Source: Pirellulales bacterium (lineage in GTDB: Bacteria; Planctomycetota; Planctomycetia; Pirellulales; JACPPG01). Taken from it: DNA of 64,000 bases. The number at the start of each line of letters is the position of its first letter. Within the stretch, counting starts at the first letter, position 1. The stretch spans positions 11,668-75,667 of the forward strand of contig DASYDW010000010.1 in assembly GCA_036499395.1 (NCBI GenBank), read 5' to 3'. Positions 5,806 to 29,328 of the stretch are shown here, one piece after another. The translations under genes and the position numbers were made by a program. The notes beneath the pieces were generated by a model. The model searched no databases, had not been told where the DNA came from, and was given only the letters and a program-made list of their open reading frames with translations.

Positions 5806-5929
5806 CTGCGTAGAAAGAGCTGGGCGTCGAGGGCCAAGTCGGATTTCGTCCCGAGGCTCCAAGGATACCGACCAAACGGCGAACCTCTATCAGTTACAAC
5901 AACCATCGTTGGCTGAAAGGAGTTCAATC

Positions 5930-6565
5930 ATGTCACTATGGAAGCATGGTCTAGGGGTTGTCGGCGCTTCGTTCCGCTCGTTCCTGCTTGTGAACTTCGT
6001 CTATTTCGGGCTTGTTGGTTGTGGCATGACATACGGGTCCTGGAATCCGGATGTTCACCAGCGATTGGCTGGCAATTTGCGCACGGGAGCGAAACAGGGG
6101 CTTCCCGCCGTGGTAGCCGCCTATGGGGACGGGCACTTTTTTCGCGCCGTGGCTTGGACCCTGGGAATAAACCTGATGGGCGGAGCGTTTCTTTATATCA
6201 CGCTCCCCTCGCTCGCCGTGCCGATGGCCGGGCTGGTAACGGGCTCTCTGCGCGCTGTCACCTGGGGACTTATTTTTACGCCAAGCTTGGCACGGCTCGA
6301 TGCTGTCACATTATCGCGCGGAGCACTGATCGGCCTGTTGCTTCTGCTGGAAGGATCGGGCTACGTATTAGCGATGTTCGGATCGTTTCTGCACGGCCGC
6401 GCACTTCTACGGCCGGCATCCGTGGGCGCCACAGGACGTTGGGATGGTTACAAGATTGGCGCTTGTCAGTCGCTCGCGCTTTATCCATTGATAGTCACGA
6501 CACTGACTGTGGCAGCCGTCTACGAGGCCACGATCCTTATTCTCGTGCTGCCGACGCTCAAATGA
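5930..6565 (+). CDS. Hypothetical polytopic membrane protein
   Basis: ATG at 5930 is in frame with ORF 5696..6565. I see five or six hydrophobic segments. No family is recognised with certainty. Confidence 0.6.
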   Translation: MSLWKHGLGVVGASFRSFLLVNFVYFGLVGCGMTYGSWNPDVHQRLAGNLRTGAKQGLPAVVAAYGDGHFFRAVAWTLGINLMGGAFLYITLPSLAVPMAGLVTGSLRAVTWGLIFTPSLARLDAVTLSRGALIGLLLLLEGSGYVLAMFGSFLHGRALLRPASVGATGRWDGYKIGACQSLALYPLIVTTLTVAAVYEATILILVLPTLK

Positions 6566-6599
6566 CGCGAGCAAGATTACTCAAGGAGGTTCTTCAAAG

Positions 6600-8399
6600 A
6601 TGGGCTTGTCGCTGAACGGCAGCATTGTTGCGATCGCATTTTTTGCGACATCGATTCTCTGCGGGAGCACCGAGACATTTGCCGCCGAGGACGTGCCAGG
6701 CAAACAATTGTCCAAGCTCTTCGCCGATAGTTGGGAATTCGCCCTGCGCGAAGATCCTCTGTTCGCCACCAGCACCGGCGACAGTCGCTACAACGACAAG
6801 CTGCCGCGCGAGACCCTGACCGATCATGCGCGCCGCCTGCAGTCCGAACGCGCATTCCTCGACCGGCTGCAAAAGATTCCCCGCGATCAACTCACGGCGA
6901 CGGAGCAGGTCAATTACGACATCTTCGAACGGCTGAAGCGCGAAGCGATCGCCGAATACGAATTCCAGGCGGACTTGATGCCGATTACGAATCGGTCTGG
7001 CTTTCATGTCTCGTTTCCCGAACTGCCGTTGGAAATGCCGCTGGCGTCGGTCGATGACTATAAGAATTACGTCTCGCGCCTCGCGGCCTTCTCGCAATTC
7101 GTTGACGACAACATCGAGCTGATGCGCGCCGGCATTAAGCAAGGAATGGTCCTCCCTGCGATTTCGATGGTCGATTTCGAAATGGCGATTCAGCCCCACA
7201 TCGTCGATGATCCCACGGCAAGTCTGCTTTACAAACCACTGGCCAAGTATCCCGACACCGTGCTCGAGTCGCAGCGTGCGGCGCTGACCGAGGCCGGTCG
7301 CAAGGCAATCGTCGCCAGCGTTGTGCCCGGCTACCGAAAGTTGCTGACTTTCCTGGGCAAGGAATACGTACCCGCCTGTCGGCAACAGGTTGGCGCAAGC
7401 GCCTTGCCGCGGGGCCGGGAATACTACCGGCACCGCGTGCGGCAGTTCACCACGCTCGATATCGATCCGCAGCAGGTGCATGACATCGGTCAGGCCGAGG
7501 TAAAACGAATCAAGGCCGAGATGCAATCGCTCATCAAGCAGGTGGATTTCAAGGGGGATTTTCCGGCGTTCGTCGAGCAACTTCGCTCCGATCCGCAGTT
7601 TTATGCCGATTCGCCCGAGCAACTGATGAAGGAAACCAGTCTGGTGCTGAAGCGCATGGACGGCGAGTTGCCCAAGCTGTTTCGCAAGCTGCCACGCACG
7701 CCCTACGGCATTCGCGAGATTCCGGATTTCATCGCGCCGCGTACCACCACGGCCTATTACCAACCGCCGGCCGGTGACGGCAGCCGGGCCGGGTTCTATT
7801 ACGTCAACACGTACAATTTGAAAAGCCGGCCGCTGTACGAAATCGAAGCCCTGTCGCTGCACGAAGCGGTGCCCGGCCATCATCTGCAGATCGCGCTGGC
7901 GCAAGAGTTGGAAGACGTGCCAGCGTTCCGCCGCTTCGCCGGCTTCACCGCCTTTATCGAAGGATGGGGGCTGTATGCCGAACGGCTGGGCCTGGAAGTC
8001 GGCTTCTACCAGGACCCGTACCGCAACTTCGGCCGGCTGAGTTACGAAATGTGGCGGGCCTGCCGACTGGTCGTTGACACCGGCATGCACTACCTGGGTT
8101 GGACCCGCGAGCAGGCCATCCAGTTCATGGCTGATAACACGGCCCTGTCATTACATAACATCACGGCCGAGGTGGATCGTTACATCGCCTGGCCGGGCCA
8201 GGCCGTGGCCTACAAAATGGGCGAACTAAAGATTCGCGAGCTGCGCCGTCTGGCCGAGGATCGGCTGAAAGACCGCTTCGACGTTCGCGAATTCCACGAC
8301 GTCGTCCTCTCGAGCGGTGCTATCCCCCTGAGCGTGCTGGAGGCGAACGTCAAAGCCTGGCTCGATACCGCCGATGCGCCGGTCGAAGGGAGGAAGTGA
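6600..8399 (+). CDS. DUF885-family protein (putative metallopeptidase-like, secreted)
   Basis: A GGAGG Shine-Dalgarno sequence lies upstream and a signal peptide is present. 'LSLHEAVPGHHLQ' plus 'VDRYIAWPGQAVAYKMG' are characteristic of DUF885. Confidence 0.85.
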   Translation: MGLSLNGSIVAIAFFATSILCGSTETFAAEDVPGKQLSKLFADSWEFALREDPLFATSTGDSRYNDKLPRETLTDHARRLQSERAFLDRLQKIPRDQLTATEQVNYDIFERLKREAIAEYEFQADLMPITNRSGFHVSFPELPLEMPLASVDDYKNYVSRLAAFSQFVDDNIELMRAGIKQGMVLPAISMVDFEMAIQPHIVDDPTASLLYKPLAKYPDTVLESQRAALTEAGRKAIVASVVPGYRKLLTFLGKEYVPACRQQVGASALPRGREYYRHRVRQFTTLDIDPQQVHDIGQAEVKRIKAEMQSLIKQVDFKGDFPAFVEQLRSDPQFYADSPEQLMKETSLVLKRMDGELPKLFRKLPRTPYGIREIPDFIAPRTTTAYYQPPAGDGSRAGFYYVNTYNLKSRPLYEIEALSLHEAVPGHHLQIALAQELEDVPAFRRFAGFTAFIEGWGLYAERLGLEVGFYQDPYRNFGRLSYEMWRACRLVVDTGMHYLGWTREQAIQFMADNTALSLHNITAEVDRYIAWPGQAVAYKMGELKIRELRRLAEDRLKDRFDVREFHDVVLSSGAIPLSVLEANVKAWLDTADAPVEGRK

Positions 8400-16456: not shown

Positions 16457-17788
16457 GTGTCCCTCGCCGTGCCGGCTTCTGCCACCGTCGCTCGAATTCA
16501 GTGCGGGGAAGTCTCGGTGTACGCTCGTCGACCACGCTTGGTACTTAATCTGGTGACCGCGGCGGTAATAGCTGCCGGCGTGCCACCATACTTGGCGACC
16601 GCGCGCGATGAAGACGTCTCTTCCGAATCGATAACCGATGATCAGGTAAAACCGGCCGCCGTCGCTCCCCTCACTCCTAAGGGAACCGACGCGCGCCGCG
16701 CCGAAGACGCGATTCGCGCTCTCGGCGGCCTGATCGAATGGGTTACTACGCCCGACGGCCGGCAGTTGATGGCCGTGTATTGGAAAGGTGGCGACGAGGG
16801 CCTCGAAAATCTGCAGGCTTTGCCTGACCTCCGCTGGCTCGACTTCACACGCACCAAGATCACGGACGAGGGGCTAGCCATCGTCGGGCAGCTCACGCAA
16901 CTAGAAGGATTAAAGCTCAACCAAGACCGCATCACCGACGCGGGCGCTTCGCATTTACGTTCGTTGACGTCGCTCGAAGCACTGTCACTGCTGGGAACGC
17001 ACATCACCACTGCGGGGATCGATCATCTCGCGCCGCTGTCGCACTTGCGGATTCTCAATCTCAATTGGACCGCGATCGGCAATGAGGGCTTGAAGAAAGT
17101 AGTTGCCGCACACCCGAACCTGGAAGAGCTGTTTCTCTACGACACCAAGATCACAGACGCCGGGCTGGTCTATCTCGCCCCGCTGCGTCGGTTGAAATCG
17201 CTCAAGCTGACTTGGAACGAAATCACTGACGCCGGCTTGATGCAGGTACTGAACTTGCCGCAACTGGAAATCCTGTTTCTCAATGGCACACAAGTCACGG
17301 ACGAGGGACTGAAGCTGCTGCGCGGATTGCCGCAGTTAAAGCAACTCTACCTGATCGAAACCGGCATTACCGACGCAGGCGTGCGCGAGCTGAGTAAGCT
17401 GTGGACCCTGGCCCGGCTGGATGTCTCGAACACGGCCGTCAGCGACGCCGGTGTGGCCCATCTGGCCAGCCTGACCCGACTGGAAATGCTGGTTCTGAAC
17501 AATACGGAAGTCACCAGCGAAGGGATGCAACACGTCGGACGCATCGCAAACCTAGGTTACCTGGGGCTGGCCGGAACCAAGGTCGATGATACCGGCATGC
17601 CCGCTATTGGCCGGCTGCGACAGCTGGAGGTGCTCGATCTGGACGACACGCACGTCACGGACGAAGGCTCGGTCGTGATCGACCAGATGCCACGGCTGCA
17701 CTCGCTTCGCCTGCGCAACACACAAGTCTCGGACGAGCGGATCGAAGAGCTGTCGCGCAATCGCCCCGAAATGCAGATCGTTAAATGA
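16457..17788 (+). CDS. Leucine-rich repeat protein
   Basis: About 12 tandem ~24-aa repeats of the form 'L..L..L.L..T.ITD.GL..L'. The exact start is uncertain (GTG at 16457). Confidence 0.8.
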   Translation: MSLAVPASATVARIQCGEVSVYARRPRLVLNLVTAAVIAAGVPPYLATARDEDVSSESITDDQVKPAAVAPLTPKGTDARRAEDAIRALGGLIEWVTTPDGRQLMAVYWKGGDEGLENLQALPDLRWLDFTRTKITDEGLAIVGQLTQLEGLKLNQDRITDAGASHLRSLTSLEALSLLGTHITTAGIDHLAPLSHLRILNLNWTAIGNEGLKKVVAAHPNLEELFLYDTKITDAGLVYLAPLRRLKSLKLTWNEITDAGLMQVLNLPQLEILFLNGTQVTDEGLKLLRGLPQLKQLYLIETGITDAGVRELSKLWTLARLDVSNTAVSDAGVAHLASLTRLEMLVLNNTEVTSEGMQHVGRIANLGYLGLAGTKVDDTGMPAIGRLRQLEVLDLDDTHVTDEGSVVIDQMPRLHSLRLRNTQVSDERIEELSRNRPEMQIVK

Positions 17789-19134
17789 ACGTCTGTGCGA
17801 GCTTCCCCATGAGACTGCGATTCGATTTTCATTGCCGTCACATCGCGCAAATCGCGCTCGTTGTTCCAATGCTGTGCGTGGCACTAACTGCCTCGCTGCG
17901 CGGTGAAGATTGGCCGCAATTCCGTGGCCCGGACGGGCAAGGATATTCGCGCGAGCGCGACTTGCCGCTCGAGTGGAGCGAATCAGAAAACGTCGTGTGG
18001 AAAACGCCGCTGCCAGGGCTTGGCTGGTCCTCGCCCGTCGTCCGCGGCCGATTGATCTGGCTTACCACCGCCATCGAACAAGAGGGTTCGCTACGTGCCC
18101 TGTGCATTGATGCGCTGACGGGACAAGTGCTGCGTGATGTGGAAGTGTTCCACAAGGCGGACCTCGGCCCCATTAATCCAAAGAACAGTCACGCTTCGCC
18201 CACGCCCGTGATCGACGGCGATCGTGTGTTCGTACACTTTGGCGCGCATGGCACGGCGTGCCTCTCGCTGCGCGGCGACGTTCTGTGGCGAAACGATCAA
18301 CTCGCTTATGATCATCGGCATGGTCCGGGCGGCTCGCCGGTCGTGTGGCGCGACCTGCTGATCTTTCACTGCGACGGCGCGGACACGCAGGCCGTCGTAG
18401 CACTGGACCGGCAGACGGGGCGTGTGCGGTGGCGCACGGATCGGCAGTCGCAGCAACCTGGCTACGGGACACCGCTACTTACGACAGTGAACGGCGCGGA
18501 TCAATTGATCAGCCCCGGCGGTGGCATGATCGCGTCGTATGAACCGGCCACGGGGCGGGAAATCTGGCGGCTGCGGCATGGTGGTGATTCGGTCGTGTTG
18601 CGCCCCGTCGTCGACCACGGACTGGTTTACGTATCGTCGGGCTACACGTCGACGGCGCTCTATGCCATCGATCTCGCGTCGCGCGGTGAAATCTCGACGG
18701 CCGACGCGACGTGGACGGTGCGGCGCGGTGTCCCGTTCGATCCTTCCCCCTTGATCGTCGGCGATGAACTCTACCTGGTGAGCGATCAAGGTGTAGTCAC
18801 GTGCCTCGACGCGCGCAGCGGCAAGCAACATTGGCAATCACGGTTGCGCGGTGCCTTCTCAGCGTCCCCGCTCGCGGCCGACGGAAGGATTTACATCACT
18901 AGCGAAGAAGGCGTGACCACGGTGATTGCGCCCGGAAAGGCGATGAAGAAACTGGCCGAGAACACTTTGGACGGTCGAATGCTCGCCTCACTGGCCACGG
19001 CCGATGGCGCCATTTTCGCGCGCACCGAATCGGCGCTGTATCGCATTCAATCCTCGGGCGGTCCGGCAGCGCAGCATCAGCCGGTTGCCGTGCGTAAAAA
19101 ACCGGCGGCCGCCTCGATGCCAGTGGCGCGCTAG
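17785..19134 (+). CDS. PQQ-like beta-propeller repeat protein (BamB-like fold)
   Basis: The 'EDWPQFRGPDGQGYS' opening and repeated W/G propeller blades. The ATG overlaps the upstream TGA as ATGA at 17785..17788. Confidence 0.85.
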   Translation: MNVCASFPMRLRFDFHCRHIAQIALVVPMLCVALTASLRGEDWPQFRGPDGQGYSRERDLPLEWSESENVVWKTPLPGLGWSSPVVRGRLIWLTTAIEQEGSLRALCIDALTGQVLRDVEVFHKADLGPINPKNSHASPTPVIDGDRVFVHFGAHGTACLSLRGDVLWRNDQLAYDHRHGPGGSPVVWRDLLIFHCDGADTQAVVALDRQTGRVRWRTDRQSQQPGYGTPLLTTVNGADQLISPGGGMIASYEPATGREIWRLRHGGDSVVLRPVVDHGLVYVSSGYTSTALYAIDLASRGEISTADATWTVRRGVPFDPSPLIVGDELYLVSDQGVVTCLDARSGKQHWQSRLRGAFSASPLAADGRIYITSEEGVTTVIAPGKAMKKLAENTLDGRMLASLATADGAIFARTESALYRIQSSGGPAAQHQPVAVRKKPAAASMPVAR

Positions 19135-25833: not shown

Positions 25834-26796
25834 ATGTCGATTTCGAAATTCATGGATCATCACTTCCGGCACTTTAACGCCCGGGAGACCGTCGAGGCAT
25901 CGCGCGCCTGGAAAAAGCATCTCGACGAGGGGGGCAAGATGCTTCTAGCCATGGCTGGCGCCATGAGCACCGCCGAGTTGGGCATTTCCCTGGCCAAGAT
26001 GATCCGCGCCGGCAAGGTTCACGCCATCAGTTGCACGGCCGCCAATTTCGAGGAAGACATTTTCAATCTGGTCGCGCATCGCGACTACTGCATGGTGCCG
26101 CACTATCGCGACCTGTCGCCGGACGACGAAGTCGCGCTGCGCGACAAGGGGTTCAACCGGGTGACCGACACCTGCATCCCGGAAACCGTGATCCGGAGCA
26201 TCGAGGGGAAGCTGCTCGAGTATTGGAGCGAAGCGGCCGAAAAGAACGAATCGTACTTCTCGTACGAATACTTCTATCGCCTGATCAAGGACGGTGTGCT
26301 GGAAAAAGTGCGCCACATTCCCAAGGAAGATTCCTGGGTGTGGGCCGCCTACGACATGAAGATCCCCATCTACACGCCGGGGTTCGAGGATTCGACGCTG
26401 GGCAACATTTTCGCGGCCCGAGTTCTAGAAGGGCGCGTCAAAAGCCACAACGCGATCAAGAGCGGCACGGCGCAGATGGAGCACCTGGTCCGCTGGTACC
26501 TGGAGACCGTCGAAAAGTCGCAGATCGGCTTCTTCCAGATCGGCGGCGGCATTGCCGGCGACTTTGCGATTTGCGCGGTGCCGTTGATCATCCAGGACCT
26601 GGAAAAAGACGTCAGCCTGTGGAGCTACTTCTGCCAGATCTCGGACTCGACGACTTCATTCGGCTCGTACTCAGGCGCGGTACCGAACGAAAAGATCACC
26701 TGGTGGAAGCTGGACCGCGACGCCCCGAAGTTCATGATCAACTCAGACGCCTCGATCGTGGCGCCGCTGATGTTCGCGTATGTGATGGGGGAGTAG
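25834..26796 (+). CDS. Deoxyhypusine synthase family protein (bacterial DHS/homospermidine-synthase-like)
   Basis: 320 aa. 'MAGAMSTAELG', 'ISCTAANFEEDIF' and 'IGGGIAGDF' match the DHS-like NAD-binding fold. Confidence 0.85.
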   Translation: MSISKFMDHHFRHFNARETVEASRAWKKHLDEGGKMLLAMAGAMSTAELGISLAKMIRAGKVHAISCTAANFEEDIFNLVAHRDYCMVPHYRDLSPDDEVALRDKGFNRVTDTCIPETVIRSIEGKLLEYWSEAAEKNESYFSYEYFYRLIKDGVLEKVRHIPKEDSWVWAAYDMKIPIYTPGFEDSTLGNIFAARVLEGRVKSHNAIKSGTAQMEHLVRWYLETVEKSQIGFFQIGGGIAGDFAICAVPLIIQDLEKDVSLWSYFCQISDSTTSFGSYSGAVPNEKITWWKLDRDAPKFMINSDASIVAPLMFAYVMGE

Positions 26797-26816
26797 CGGC
26801 GCTCGGAGCGATTCGT

Positions 26817-27770
26817 GTGGAACTCGCCGTTTACAATCTTGAGTTTCCGCTTAACTGCAAGACGTTGTCCATTTGTGGCGACGAGTTCTCGCGGGTAGTG
26901 GATTACCCGAGTCGATTTCGCGCATTACAGCACCTCGTCAGCGTGCATGATCCAGAGGGCTCCCGGGAAGTCTGCACCGGCGGCCACGCCCACACGGCGA
27001 ATGCCACGACGCCAAACCCTATCCCTCCCGCAGCGATTTCATGGGGCTTCGCACATGCGACGGCGCTGGATGATATCCTATTGCTGCTTAGCCTATTTAC
27101 GCAGCGAGATGTATTCGTTGTCGACCTGTCGCGGTTCGGCGATAAACCATTTGCAATACTCGCAGATCCTCGCTGTTTTCCGTGGGGTGGCGTGCTCAGT
27201 TGCTCTGTTCCGTTTAAGGGATTTAACCCGACAGATAATCCAACTGACGAGGTCGACATCGGCTTGTTAGAGCAACTTCCCAAAATCTACGAGCGACTGA
27301 ATGACGAGAAGTGGCGGAAAGGCTATAGAAACGGTTATTTCCTCGTTTTGCTGAAAATCGCCATGCAGCAGCGATCGCTTGAAATTGCGTTCTCACAATG
27401 TTGGACCATTTGGGAGCATTTATTCGCGTGTCTAAATGATGCGTGGATGTCAAACGCGTCTATCGAACGTCTAAGTGCGAAGGAGAAGATCGCTTTTCTG
27501 TTAGTGCATTTCGGAGTTCGAGTCGAACTTCAGAAGCATGAAAAATCGCGCCTCGATGATCTCGTCGCAATTCGAAATCGACTCGTTCACTACGGTCGTT
27601 TCCCAGATAGAGATTTTGTCCGACAAGATGCAGAGATGTTTGTACGAATTACGGAATACGTTGCGGCTAAGATTCTGGGGCTCTATCCGTCGAATGTCTT
27701 CAACACGGTGGAACGACTCGAAGAATTCCTTAGCGCTCAAAAGCGCGTGATGAAAACCGGGCATCCTTAA
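26817..27770 (+). CDS. HEPN-motif protein (putative RNase/abortive-infection-like), low-GC island
   Basis: This is the 3' part of track ORF 26031..27770, whose 5' part overlaps the DHS gene out of frame. A helical C-terminus carries 'LVAIRNRLVHYG' (R-x4-H at 27573..27590). G+C is about 42-43% in lines 27301 and 27601. The start is uncertain: GTG at 26817 is the first candidate after the DHS stop, and the first in-frame ATG is only at 27363. Confidence 0.55.
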   Translation: MELAVYNLEFPLNCKTLSICGDEFSRVVDYPSRFRALQHLVSVHDPEGSREVCTGGHAHTANATTPNPIPPAAISWGFAHATALDDILLLLSLFTQRDVFVVDLSRFGDKPFAILADPRCFPWGGVLSCSVPFKGFNPTDNPTDEVDIGLLEQLPKIYERLNDEKWRKGYRNGYFLVLLKIAMQQRSLEIAFSQCWTIWEHLFACLNDAWMSNASIERLSAKEKIAFLLVHFGVRVELQKHEKSRLDDLVAIRNRLVHYGRFPDRDFVRQDAEMFVRITEYVAAKILGLYPSNVFNTVERLEEFLSAQKRVMKTGHP

Positions 27771-27813
27771 ACGTCGACCGAAACCGATCCATGGTTAGCG
27801 GGAGAGTATCAAA

Positions 27814-29328
27814 ATGTCGCGAAAACTGTTCATCGGATTTGCTTTTTGCCTAGTCGCGCTGACCGACGCCGCGCGCGGCGCGGATTGGCCGCAGTTTCGC
27901 GGGCCGGGCGGTGCGGGATTGACCGACGAGTCGAAATTGCCAGCCCAGTGGAGCGTCGATAAGAATATCCGTTGGAAGGTCGAGATCCCGGGCGTCGGCT
28001 GGTCCTCGCCGGTGATTTGGGGAAACAAAGTCTTCATCACCACGGCCATCACGGAGAATCAGAAAAAGCCTGCTCAGTTCACGTTCGGTGGTGGTCGACC
28101 GGGAGGCGAGCGTCCTGACGGTGATCGTCCGGATGGTGAACGACCAAGACGCGAACGTCCCGCGGCCGACGATGCGAATCCGCAAGACGCGCCCGCAGAT
28201 CGGCCGAGCCCGCCCGCGGATGGCGACGGTCCCAAGGGAGAAGGCCGCCGGCGCCGCGGTGGCGGCGGCGGAGGAGGTGGTGGATTCGGCGGCGAGAAGC
28301 CTGATGCCCTCTACCGTTTCGAGGTCTATTGCCTGGATCGCAACACGGGCGACGTTCTCTGGAAGCAACTCGCCGCCGAGCAGAAGCCGGCGATTCCCAC
28401 GCACAGCACCAACACGTATGCCTCGGAGACGCCCGTCACCGATGGAGAACATCTCTATACCTATTTCGGCATGACGGGCTTGTTCTGCTTTGATCTCAAT
28501 GGGAAGCATATCTGGAGCAAGGATCTAGGCGTTTATCCGATGTTCTTGGGCTGGGGCACAGGAAGCTCGCCCGTCTTGGCAGGCGAAAACCTGATCGTGC
28601 AATGCGACAACGACAAGGAATCTTTTCTTGTGGCGCTGGATAAGAAAACCGGCGATGAGAAATGGCGAGTCTCGCGCGAGGACAAGTCAGGCTGGTCGAC
28701 TCCCTGCTTGTGGCGCAACAAGGTACGCACCGAACTAGTCGTCGCTTCTCCGAAACGTGCCGTTTCGTACGATCCCAAAGATGGCGCCGTGCTGTGGGAA
28801 GTCGAAGGCTTCGTGGGCCGATGCGCAGCGACGCCGGTGGGAGATGACGAGCGAGTCTATCTCGGTACCGGCGGTGGCATGGCAGGCAGCGGTCCCTTGG
28901 TAGCCGTGCGGGCCGGCGCGGCTGGCAAGTTCGCGCTTGCCGCCGGAAAGGAACAGCCTGAGCAGATTGCCTGGAAGCTGCCAAAAGGGGGCCCACCGAT
29001 GGCTTCGCCGCTGGTCTACCAGGGATATCTGTACATCCTGGAGGAACGAGGCGGATTGCTGAGCTGCTATGACGCCACCGACGGCAAGCGCGCGTACCAG
29101 CAACGTGTTCAGGGCGCGAAGGGCTTTACCTCCTCGCCGTGGGCGAACGATGGCAAGGTCTTCTGCCTGGACGCGGGCGGCGAGACGTTCGTGATTAAGG
29201 CTGGGCCCGAGTTCGAACTGCTCGATGAAAACAAGCTCGACGAAATGTGCTGGGCCACGCCAGCCGCGGCCGACGGTACAATTTTCCTGCGCACCACGGA
29301 TCACCTGTGGTGCATCAAATCACCGTGA
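27814..29328 (+). CDS. PQQ-like beta-propeller repeat protein with a ~80-aa Gly/Arg/Asp/Pro-rich insert
   Basis: Signal peptide, then 'ADWPQFRGPGGAG'. It is a paralog of 17785..19134. The insert at 28063..28305 includes 'GERPDGDRPDGERPRRERP...RRRRGGGGGGGGGFGG'. Confidence 0.85.
   Translation: MSRKLFIGFAFCLVALTDAARGADWPQFRGPGGAGLTDESKLPAQWSVDKNIRWKVEIPGVGWSSPVIWGNKVFITTAITENQKKPAQFTFGGGRPGGERPDGDRPDGERPRRERPAADDANPQDAPADRPSPPADGDGPKGEGRRRRGGGGGGGGGFGGEKPDALYRFEVYCLDRNTGDVLWKQLAAEQKPAIPTHSTNTYASETPVTDGEHLYTYFGMTGLFCFDLNGKHIWSKDLGVYPMFLGWGTGSSPVLAGENLIVQCDNDKESFLVALDKKTGDEKWRVSREDKSGWSTPCLWRNKVRTELVVASPKRAVSYDPKDGAVLWEVEGFVGRCAATPVGDDERVYLGTGGGMAGSGPLVAVRAGAAGKFALAAGKEQPEQIAWKLPKGGPPMASPLVYQGYLYILEERGGLLSCYDATDGKRAYQQRVQGAKGFTSSPWANDGKVFCLDAGGETFVIKAGPEFELLDENKLDEMCWATPAAADGTIFLRTTDHLWCIKSP

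Follow-up and report, generated by a model that had tools for sequence, protein, structure and literature searches.

We analyzed a stretch of 64,000 nucleotides (nt) from a Pirellulales bacterium (assembly GCA_036499395.1, contig DASYDW010000010.1, positions 11,668 to 75,667 of the forward strand). We refer to this whole stretch as the window, and coordinates are counted from its first letter. The gene that we focus on encodes a protein of 317 amino acids (aa) and lies between a gene of the deoxyhypusine synthase family and a gene for a PQQ_2 beta-propeller protein. The protein combines a predicted HEPN-type ribonuclease (RNase) domain with a family-specific N-terminal domain, and we call its gene the HEPN-family gene.

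The gene and its start codon

An earlier note on this sequence had described a single open reading frame (ORF) between the deoxyhypusine-synthase-like and PQQ-propeller genes, and Pfam matches (DS and PQQ_2) confirmed both neighbors. The note had the gene extend to 27813, but its stop codon is the TAA at 27768 to 27770. The gene is tightly packed with its metabolic neighbors and points in the same direction (Table 1); beyond the PQQ gene are an SDR gene and then a PepSY_TM gene. No promoter- or terminator-like site was found between these genes.

The first in-frame ATG is indeed at 27363 (M183), and the note had suggested either a GTG or TTG start or a remodeled 5' end. If translation begins at the GTG at 26817, then the protein starts with MELAVYNLEF, which is in register with the N termini of 53 homologs (M-x3-VYNLEF), many of which also start with GTG. 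The homologs begin at the same alignment column, and several of them have a GTG behind a GGAG-like sequence. The same start was called by NCBI for an identical 317-aa protein (VGN12_01495) from a Pirellulales metagenome-assembled genome. In an ortholog that is 86% identical (on a contig that we call L009), the GTG, the GGAG 8 nt upstream, and the sequence VELAVYNLEF are all kept. Because the GTG start is conserved in the ortholog and in the homologs, we rejected a remodeled 5' end. A mosaic gene was ruled out as well, given the aligned N termini of the homologs and the pattern of composition across loci (described below).

We conclude that the gene is functional, because the ratio of nonsynonymous to synonymous substitution rates (dN/dS) between the window and the L009 ortholog is 0.105 over 311 codons, which indicates purifying selection. 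The corresponding ratios are 0.058 for the PQQ gene and 0.072 for the SDR gene. The window protein is full length, and the only invariant residue from which it departs is Y22: the residues around this position are GDEF in the window protein and GYRF in the family, and the 86%-identical ortholog keeps the tyrosine. Separately, dS between window positions 26817 to 27770 and L009 positions 171 to 1106 is 0.74, which is two- to threefold higher than for the adjacent PQQ gene (0.26) or the SDR gene (0.40). This elevated dS may be due to weak codon bias or to exchange or replacement of the allele.

TABLE 1 Coordinates of the HEPN-family gene, its parts, and its neighbors in the window
Feature	Coordinates	Strand	Remarks
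HEPN-family gene	26817-27770	+	Protein-coding, 317 aa plus stop; GTG start; solitary member of a two-domain family (orphan N-terminal domain plus HEPN)
Likely ribosome-binding site and start codon	26805-26819	+	GGAG at 26805-26808, 8 nt 5' of GTG at 26817-26819; role of GGAG in ribosome binding is putative
N-terminal alpha/beta domain, aa 1-148	26817-27260	+	Secondary structure from AlphaFold2; fold without a Pfam or PDB match
C-terminal all-helical domain, aa 149-306	27261-27734	+	Predicted HEPN RNase domain (AlphaFold2, weak profile matches)
CWTIWEHLF, aa 195-203	27399-27425	+	In second core helix; E200 and H201 invariant in 54 + 63 sequences
R253-N-R-L-V-H258	27573-27590	+	R-x4-H motif, predicted HEPN RNase catalytic site; C-terminal end of helix aa 240-259
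Deoxyhypusine synthase-family gene (upstream neighbor)	25834-26796		Pfam DS, E = 8e-43; 20-nt gap to HEPN-family gene
PQQ_2 beta-propeller gene (downstream neighbor)	27814-29328		43-nt gap after HEPN-family gene (27771-27813 intergenic)

The C-terminal domain

We built an AlphaFold2 model from an alignment of 54 sequences (mean predicted local distance difference test score [pLDDT] of 94.7, predicted template modeling score of 0.92). The boundary between the alpha/beta and the all-helical part falls after residue 148, so the helical domain has about 160 residues and the N-terminal domain about 148, instead of the roughly 130 and 180 that the earlier note had given.

The definition of HEPN RNases (Anantharaman et al. 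2013, PMC3710099) comprises an R-x4-6-H motif at the end of helix 3, with a polar residue (N, D, or H) right after the arginine, and a further conserved acidic residue that lies upstream in helix 2 and often reads E-x3-[KR]. The helical domain is predicted to have core helices at residues 171 to 184, 188 to 207, 240 to 259, and 268 to 286, with a helical insert at 213 to 231 (213 to 218 and 221 to 231) between helices 2 and 3. The motif R-N-R-L-V-H, which had already been noticed at this position, ends the third core helix, just ahead of the loop to the fourth. We computed conservation across the 54 database sequences and another 63 sequences derived from loci: R253 and H258 are invariant, and residue 254 is asparagine in 59 of the 63 locus-derived sequences and histidine in 4. 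The invariant residues of the helical domain also include W196, E200, and H201. By conservation and position, E200 in helix 188 to 207 could serve as the active site's upstream acidic residue; its context is E-H-L-F-A, not E-x3-[KR]. The HEPN RNase signature that was first read from the sequence thus largely holds up, with an invariant motif at a helix end, an all-helical domain, an insert between helices 2 and 3 that also fits the definition, and a candidate for the acidic residue that is invariant.

Matches to known families point the same way, although they are below the significance or curation thresholds. Beyond HEPN_Swt1, which we discuss below, the Pfam matches of the 54 members are to HEPN families (Cthe2314, RiboL-PSP, and Apea), apart from one single weak match. 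PADLOC's CARF_HEPN model was matched by 11 of the 54 (best E = 1.5e-5), and CARF_PDDEXK was weakly matched by 1. When we compared the model to structures in PDB with Foldseek, the best-ranked matches were mostly HEPN proteins, at nonsignificant E values of 0.35 to 3: first the HepT-type toxins 7ae6, 8xdj, 6m6w, and 5yep and then 2hsb, 1ylm, HepS (9oik, E = 2.1), and Csm6' (8pe3). Nothing significant was found by comparing the whole model to BFVD, and nothing relevant by searching PDB with the single protein sequence. A profile of the C-terminal domain had 155 matches among 5.8 billion proteins, all of them from the same family, with no bridge to annotated HEPN families. Because there was no significant match to a HEPN structure, the claim about the fold rests on the motif, the predicted topology, and the concordant sub-threshold matches. 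On this basis, the helical domain is very likely a HEPN-type RNase domain.

The N-terminal domain

The earlier note had not recognized the N-terminal part of the protein, and neither did our searches: it had no match in Pfam, NCBIfam, or PADLOC (the NCBIfam search with the window protein returned only one meaningless weak match). When this domain was modeled separately (aa 1 to 149, pLDDT of 82) and compared to PDB with Foldseek, the best match had E = 1.1, with probabilities of at most 0.06. We considered whether it might be an MNT nucleotidyltransferase, but no such signal was found by Pfam or Foldseek. We also rejected the named N-terminal domains of ApeA and AbiJ, as no such profile or fold was matched.

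A profile of the N-terminal domain had only 145 matches among 1.84 billion representative proteins; E was at most 1e-10 for 133 of them and at most 1e-30 for 72. Complete matches are about 300 to 370 aa long. We read eight distant or atypical matches, and all of them end in R-x4-H; in the most distant ones (318 to 372 aa), this is mostly R-N-x3-H, in variants such as FRNDLLH, FRNSVVH, IRNQIVH, and FRNGVVH. Since the distant matches that we read also end in this motif, the N-terminal domain is seen only in fusion to the HEPN domain. Within it, N7, R97, and S130 are invariant, and R26, G55, H57, D117, and R119 are nearly so. This conservation of polar residues suggests a pocket that might bind a ligand or a partner or be catalytic. 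Whether the domain acts as a sensor or regulator is, in our judgment, an even bet.

The family

We searched 5.8 billion clustered proteins (clusters at 90% identity) for relatives of the window protein and found at least 369 clusters, or about 133 to 145 at 50% identity. Almost all relatives have 300 to 335 aa, align end to end, and are 45 to 86% identical to the window protein. Their sources are Pirellulales, Maioricimonas, Anaerolineae, Caldilineaceae, Pelolinea, and Desulfosporosinus: the family is patchy across Planctomycetota, Chloroflexota, and Bacillota, with 45 to 50% identity across the three phyla. The family moves between phyla, and its architecture, an alpha/beta domain fused to an R-N-x3-H helical domain, is fixed throughout. 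Most relatives are named "hypothetical protein," and two UniRef entries (P0105 and P0287 in our set) are named "Apea-like HEPN domain-containing protein." Among the papers available to us, none was on the family, on "Apea-like HEPN," or on the pairing of HEPN with Type IIG enzymes that we describe below. What is new here is a predicted HEPN effector with a family-specific N-terminal domain; the kind itself, HEPN RNases with diverse N-terminal fusions and frequent links to restriction-modification systems, has been catalogued since 2013 and is no surprise as a concept.

One relative (P0123, 565 aa) has an N-terminal extension of 246 aa, with an R-N-x3-H stretch of its own (SLRNFIVH), before the usual two-domain unit. 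Either HEPN domains were fused in tandem here, or two gene calls were merged.

Probable foreign origin of the gene

The G+C content of the HEPN-family gene is 0.506, the lowest of all 954-nt segments of the window (0.1 percentile), versus 0.605 for the window as a whole. Its distal 670 nt have a G+C content of 0.479, about 4.7 standard deviations under the window mean. The G+C content at third codon positions (GC3) is 0.54 in the gene and 0.70 to 0.83 in four neighbors. The counts of G+C per 60 nt that were reported earlier (36, 26, 25, and 40 at 26701, 27301, 27601, and 27901) are exact, but they had been taken to mean that the distal two-thirds of the gene is foreign. The composition is foreign, but this is true of the entire gene, and the step within it reflects amino acid composition. 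Across 50 nonredundant loci of the family, the N-terminal half of the gene has a higher G+C content than the C-terminal half in 47, and the same holds for GC3 in just 21. As there is a step in G+C without a step in GC3, we attribute it to a family-wide effect of amino acid composition. Compared to their flanks, the family's genes have lower G+C content in 47 of the 50 loci (mean difference of -0.071, Wilcoxon p = 3e-12), with extreme contrasts of 0.34 versus 0.59 and 0.38 versus 0.57.

We then compared the locus across relatives, using the deoxyhypusine synthase protein as the query and one genome per species. This identified 39 loci, of which 31 were from Planctomycetes (59 to 96% identity). 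None of the 31 Planctomycete loci has the HEPN-family, PQQ, or SDR gene downstream of deoxyhypusine synthase; upstream, the glycogen phosphorylase gene is often retained. In the closest relative (96% identity), the downstream genes are unrelated to those of the window, and in the next (90% identity; L011), a DPPY DNA methyltransferase is encoded right behind the deoxyhypusine synthase gene (5905 to 6843 on the minus strand). Only L009 has the layout of the window, and its flanking proteins are 94 to 100% identical, versus 86% for the HEPN protein. Because gene order is conserved only as far as the deoxyhypusine synthase gene's 3' end, the HEPN-family gene is part of a variable flank, and this flank is a variable spot in the lineage. 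At the DNA level, the sequences 3' of the deoxyhypusine synthase gene at L010 (5964 to 10960) and L011 (5905 to 6843, minus strand), where the synthases are 90 to 96% identical, are unrelated to the window.

The foreign origin that the earlier note proposed is supported by the lowest G+C content in the window and by the absence of the gene from this position in relatives; in particular, the gene is not a conserved part of the locus with native composition, as it is missing from the 31 related loci. However, the description of a single-gene island between housekeeping genes needs to be revised. There is a single ORF at this place, but the PQQ and SDR genes are also missing from the 31 relatives. 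We rejected a clean insertion of one gene between conserved neighbors, as the relatives share nothing past the deoxyhypusine synthase gene. No flanking direct repeats or tandem repeats were detected at the window gene, no tRNA gene was found in the window, and the vicinity of the gene had no Rfam match at E ≤ 1. Overall, we consider it likely that the HEPN-family gene is a horizontally acquired accessory gene.

Gene neighborhoods across the family

Ten annotated contexts of family members had no common neighbor. At 94 loci (80 of them added from a metagenome scan), which represent 75 nonredundant groups, we took every ORF up to 4 kb away from the family gene and clustered these ORFs. The sole recurrent neighbor is a gene encoding 1,030 to 1,080 aa, directly upstream and on the same strand, in 15 of the 55 groups for which the upstream sequence covers 1 kb or more. 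It encodes a Type IIG restriction enzyme-methyltransferase, as it matches PADLOC's PDLC03610 over its full length (E from 0 to 1e-298) as well as Type_ISP_C, N6_Mtase, Eco57I, and MmeI_Mtase from Pfam. The Type IIG gene ends 10 to 27 nt before the HEPN gene; in most of these loci, the distance is about 10 to 15 nt, and the HEPN gene follows a GGAG-like sequence. In a neighbor-joining tree, all of the Type IIG-linked members are in one clade, and the window protein is in a different, solitary clade; no Type IIG homolog was found in the window. The gene had been called partner-less, which is correct for the window copy but not for the family, as one clade is operonic with a restriction-methylase.

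The Type IIG-linked loci include L097, L098, L104, L106, and L108. At L104 and L108, the last 34 to 50 nt of the Type IIG gene, including its stop codon, are repeated 160 to 250 nt downstream of the HEPN gene (z of about 10), which resembles a scar left when the HEPN gene was inserted at the restriction gene's 3' end. At L117 (7136 to 8809), a distant member (34% identity) is followed by a DPPY DNA methyltransferase gene that starts 161 nt downstream, and an ORF of 750 aa comes next. Here the family may have another link, independent of the first, to a restriction-modification (R-M) system.

At another locus (L052; ENA ERZ25039527 contig_15962), 50-nt direct repeats (z = 19.9) lie on both sides of the family gene. 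The repeat is part of an element of about 90 nt that is present in 13 to 15 copies, one between each pair of co-directional genes (L052, 5069 to 16505). The element has the ends TCTAAC...GTTAGG and forms an imperfect hairpin (folding z of -2.9 and -3.5). These repeats are an integron-type attC array (attC sites are imperfect hairpins of the form RYYYAAC...GTTRRRY), and the family gene is one of its cassettes. The other cassettes encode two ParE/antitoxin pairs, a GNAT protein, a DUF559/MTES_1575 nuclease, and two copies of IS110. About 1 kb upstream, a gene for a tyrosine recombinase has the same orientation as the array. Cassettes of chromosomal integrons are stores of defense genes (bioRxiv 10.1101/2024.07.02.601686). 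We also looked for attC-like sites at the flanks of the window gene and found none: the flanks do not fold better than shuffled sequences (z of +0.3 and +1.2) and are not repeated.

Neighbors of other solitary members include BrxC/BrxD-like ATPases and a DEAD helicase (L051), SLFN_AlbA_2 (L005), and a fusion of a nucleotidyltransferase to HEPN (L001). We used PADLOC to compare 150 neighbors of solitary members to 150 neighbors from control loci centered on deoxyhypusine synthase (E ≤ 1e-10). There were 220 matched models near solitary members and 55 in the controls, about 20 of which were due to one kinase, but because the output counts models and not proteins, we take this contrast as no more than suggestive. 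The models near solitary members include Type I, II, and III methyltransferases, BrxD, BrxHI/II, mad2, SngB, and GajB-like models. In Desulfosporosinus hippei (FNCP01000013; L002, 1 to 12927), the homolog is among more than 20 small co-directional ORFs, almost all of them without Pfam matches. This run includes SF0329, DUF4926, and then an HNH_repeat protein, and it could be a cassette array or an array of immunity genes.

Elsewhere in the window, the PQQ protein next to the HEPN-family gene has, after its signal-peptide-like N terminus, a low-complexity insert of about 75 aa that is rich in Gly, Arg, Pro, Asp, and Glu and includes GGGGGGGGG (28080 to 28310). The insert coincides with a local peak in G+C content (0.67 to 0.69). 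A second PQQ_2 paralog (17785 to 19131) adjoins the gene for a leucine-rich repeat (LRR) protein.

Interpretation of the gene and its alternatives

Our preferred explanation, to which we assign a probability of roughly 0.6, is that the gene encodes a solitary and self-contained HEPN endoribonuclease that was acquired horizontally, is latent and self-regulated, and is used in defense or conflict. That last part, the role in defense or conflict, seems somewhat more probable than not. By analogy to other HEPN proteins, two copies would pair via their helical domains, so that a composite RNase site arises that needs no metal (R253, N254, H258, and probably E200/H201). In healthy cells, the protein's own N-terminal domain would hold the enzyme inactive. 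A cue of infection or stress, as read by the N-terminal domain, would release the enzyme, which would then cut cellular RNA (tRNA or mRNA), so that translation stops and the growth of the phage is aborted. In the Type IIG-linked clade, the protein might be a back-up RNase that fires once the restriction enzyme is disabled, like PrrC with EcoprrI.

Several results weigh against this explanation. The window protein does not pass any curated threshold in Pfam or PADLOC. Its match to HEPN_Swt1 (PF18731) has E = 0.0038 and 17.9 bits, under the gathering cutoff of 27.5 bits; 22 of the 54 members match this family, and even the best of them (P0064, 7.8e-6 and 26.6 bits) is under the cutoff. The search for a HEPN fold with the whole model gave nothing significant in PDB (best E = 0.35, template modeling scores of at most 0.45), and a sequence-profile search of PDB did not return any HEPN chain. 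Codon 22 (26880 to 26882) encodes aspartate in the window protein, and at least 90% of the family has tyrosine. As for mobility and context, we did not find the family on 72,556 plasmids (PLSDB), on 50,697 phage genomes (INPHARED), or in IMG/VR. The absence of MNT, integrase, and flanking direct repeats at the window copy, as reported earlier, was confirmed, and no integrase, MNT, defense, or mobile-element gene is present within about 10 kb of it. About half of the contexts of solitary members, including the window, look ordinary or housekeeping, and the enrichment of PADLOC models among neighbors is modest when counted by protein.

We considered whether the protein might instead be the toxin of an addiction module, with its fused N-terminal domain (or an unseen small RNA or protein) as the antitoxin, that stabilizes the carrier DNA or the cassette array. 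HEPN domains are common among the toxins of toxin-antitoxin systems, the top fold matches are HepT toxins, one member lies in an integron-like array with two ParE/antitoxin pairs, and fused single-chain MNT-HEPN systems exist (PMC13000451). However, among the 75 locus groups, no small ORF (at least 35 aa, within 700 nt) is conserved beside the solitary members. The intergenic gaps beside the window gene measure only 20 nt and 43 nt, and we found neither tandem repeats nor an Rfam match that might represent an RNA antitoxin. The N-terminal domain has no nucleotidyltransferase signal, and the only recurrent partner is a restriction-methylase of 1,050 aa. These results make an addiction toxin unlikely. 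It is less likely still that this is a cellular protein for RNA processing or regulation (a housekeeping-type HEPN or a noncatalytic RNA binder) that is AT-rich by chance. Such a protein would be consistent with co-directional packing with metabolic genes and no terminator in between, with the housekeeping contexts of several homologs, and with strong purifying selection. But relatives whose deoxyhypusine synthase is 80 to 96% identical do not have the gene at this locus, and the family is small, phylogenetically patchy, and below its hosts' G+C content at 47 of 50 loci. Also, the catalytic motif is fully conserved, a restriction-methylase gene accompanies the members of one clade, and one member is an integron cassette.

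Membership in the ApeA defense family is suggested by the UniRef names of P0105 and P0287, and HEPN_Apea (PF18739) is weakly matched by 1 of the 54 members (E = 0.0093) and by P0123 and P0254 (E of about 1e-3). ApeA and the window protein also have a single-gene layout, a C-terminal RNxxxH HEPN domain, and a noncatalytic N-terminal part in common. However, the window protein itself has no match to HEPN_Apea at E ≤ 10, and P0105 scores 15.6 bits, as compared to a cutoff of 24.4. The only PADLOC models that members did match were CARF_HEPN and, weakly in 1 of 54, CARF_PDDEXK. ApeA is mostly helical, has about 580 aa in three domains (N, Mid, and split HEPN), and forms decamers or dodecamers (bioRxiv 10.64898/2026.01.26.701840); the window protein has 317 aa, an alpha/beta N-terminal domain, and an unsplit HEPN domain. 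We therefore rejected ApeA as the family assignment on the basis of architecture and consider it very improbable. The ApeA- or Abi-like character that the earlier note ascribed to the protein is valid at the level of the superfamily, but neither profiles nor architecture place it in ApeA. Finally, a decaying remnant or a spurious ORF could explain the non-ATG start, the lack of a promoter-like site in our search, and the change of Y22 to D at a conserved position. This is hardly credible for a full-length gene with dN/dS of 0.105 over 311 codons, a confident AlphaFold2 model, and a GTG start that is common to the ortholog and the homologs.

A more specific proposal is that the family is a single-protein abortive-infection system that has not been described before. 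Its new-fold N-terminal domain would sense a small-molecule or protein cue of infection and unlock the HEPN RNase. In one clade, the same protein would have become a guard of single-chain Type IIG restriction-methylases, in the manner of PrrC, and the gene would spread on its own, sometimes as an integron cassette. We view this combination as tentative, and we would bet slightly against it. If its function is confirmed, the family would add an immune or toxin module that consists of one gene and is compact (about 310 aa), with a sensor domain that lacks a recognized fold. Current models for finding defense systems do not detect it, and it occurs in little-studied phyla (Planctomycetota and Chloroflexota) in which tests of defense systems have been few. 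With its pair of genes, the Type IIG-linked clade would be a simple system in which to study how a restriction enzyme is coupled to a back-up RNase, and the solitary copies would be a route to what the N-terminal domain senses. This would add one member and its new sensor to a known kind, and not a new principle.

Comparison with known systems

By profile, the nearest known group is the Swt1-like/Abi2 (AbiD/AbiF) clade of HEPN domains (PF18731), and the matches to HEPN_Swt1 cover the R-N-x3-H helix. Prokaryotic members of this clade have many different N-terminal fusions and are often in R-M operons (PMC3710099). The window protein differs in that the Pfam cutoff is not reached, its N-terminal domain is not among the partners that are listed for the clade, and it has no Abi gene or RNA partner. 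Regarding type III toxin-antitoxin (AbiF-like) systems, we did not find tandem RNA repeats next to the gene, and the upstream gap of 20 nt has no Rfam match.

HepT of the HepT/MntA systems (type VII toxin-antitoxin) is the top-ranked structural neighbor, at nonsignificant E values of 0.35 or more, and shares the R-x4-H site, which in HepT is formed in the dimer. However, HepT requires an MNT partner, whereas the window protein has no MNT, adjacent or fused, and has an extra domain of 148 aa. HepS and DARNA (PD-T7-3) are stand-alone HEPN tRNases in which the noncatalytic part senses a phage component or state: a tail-tip protein for HepS and single-stranded DNA (ssDNA) bound by its binding protein, SSB, for DARNA. 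HepS has only 197 aa and resembles the window protein as a weak fold match, with no sequence similarity. In DARNA, the HEPN domain is N-terminal and is followed by a helical C-terminal domain of 300 aa; we rejected DARNA as the family assignment because of this reverse order of domains.

For the Type IIG-linked clade, the closest parallel is PrrC-EcoprrI, where the gene for a HEPN RNase is inside an R-M operon and is proposed to be a second line of defense when restriction is blocked; at least 16 clades of HEPN proteins are linked to R-M systems (PMC3710099). One clade of our family is likewise directly behind a restriction enzyme-methyltransferase. However, the partner is a single-chain Type IIG enzyme and not a Type Ic hsdMSR system, and an R-M partner is lacking from the window copy and from most of the family. 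Also, PrrC has an N-terminal ABC-ATPase domain, in contrast to the window protein, which has no ATPase domain according to Pfam (the same distinction applies to RloC).

For the solitary copy in the window, the best model of regulation is ApeA, by analogy. Like the window protein, ApeA consists of one polypeptide chain in which noncatalytic N-terminal parts precede a C-terminal RNxxxH HEPN domain. In this anticodon nuclease, a ligand pocket made by the noncatalytic parts turns on the RNase, which leads to abortive infection (bioRxiv 10.64898/2026.01.26.701840), and the N-terminal domain of our family might control its HEPN domain in a comparable way.

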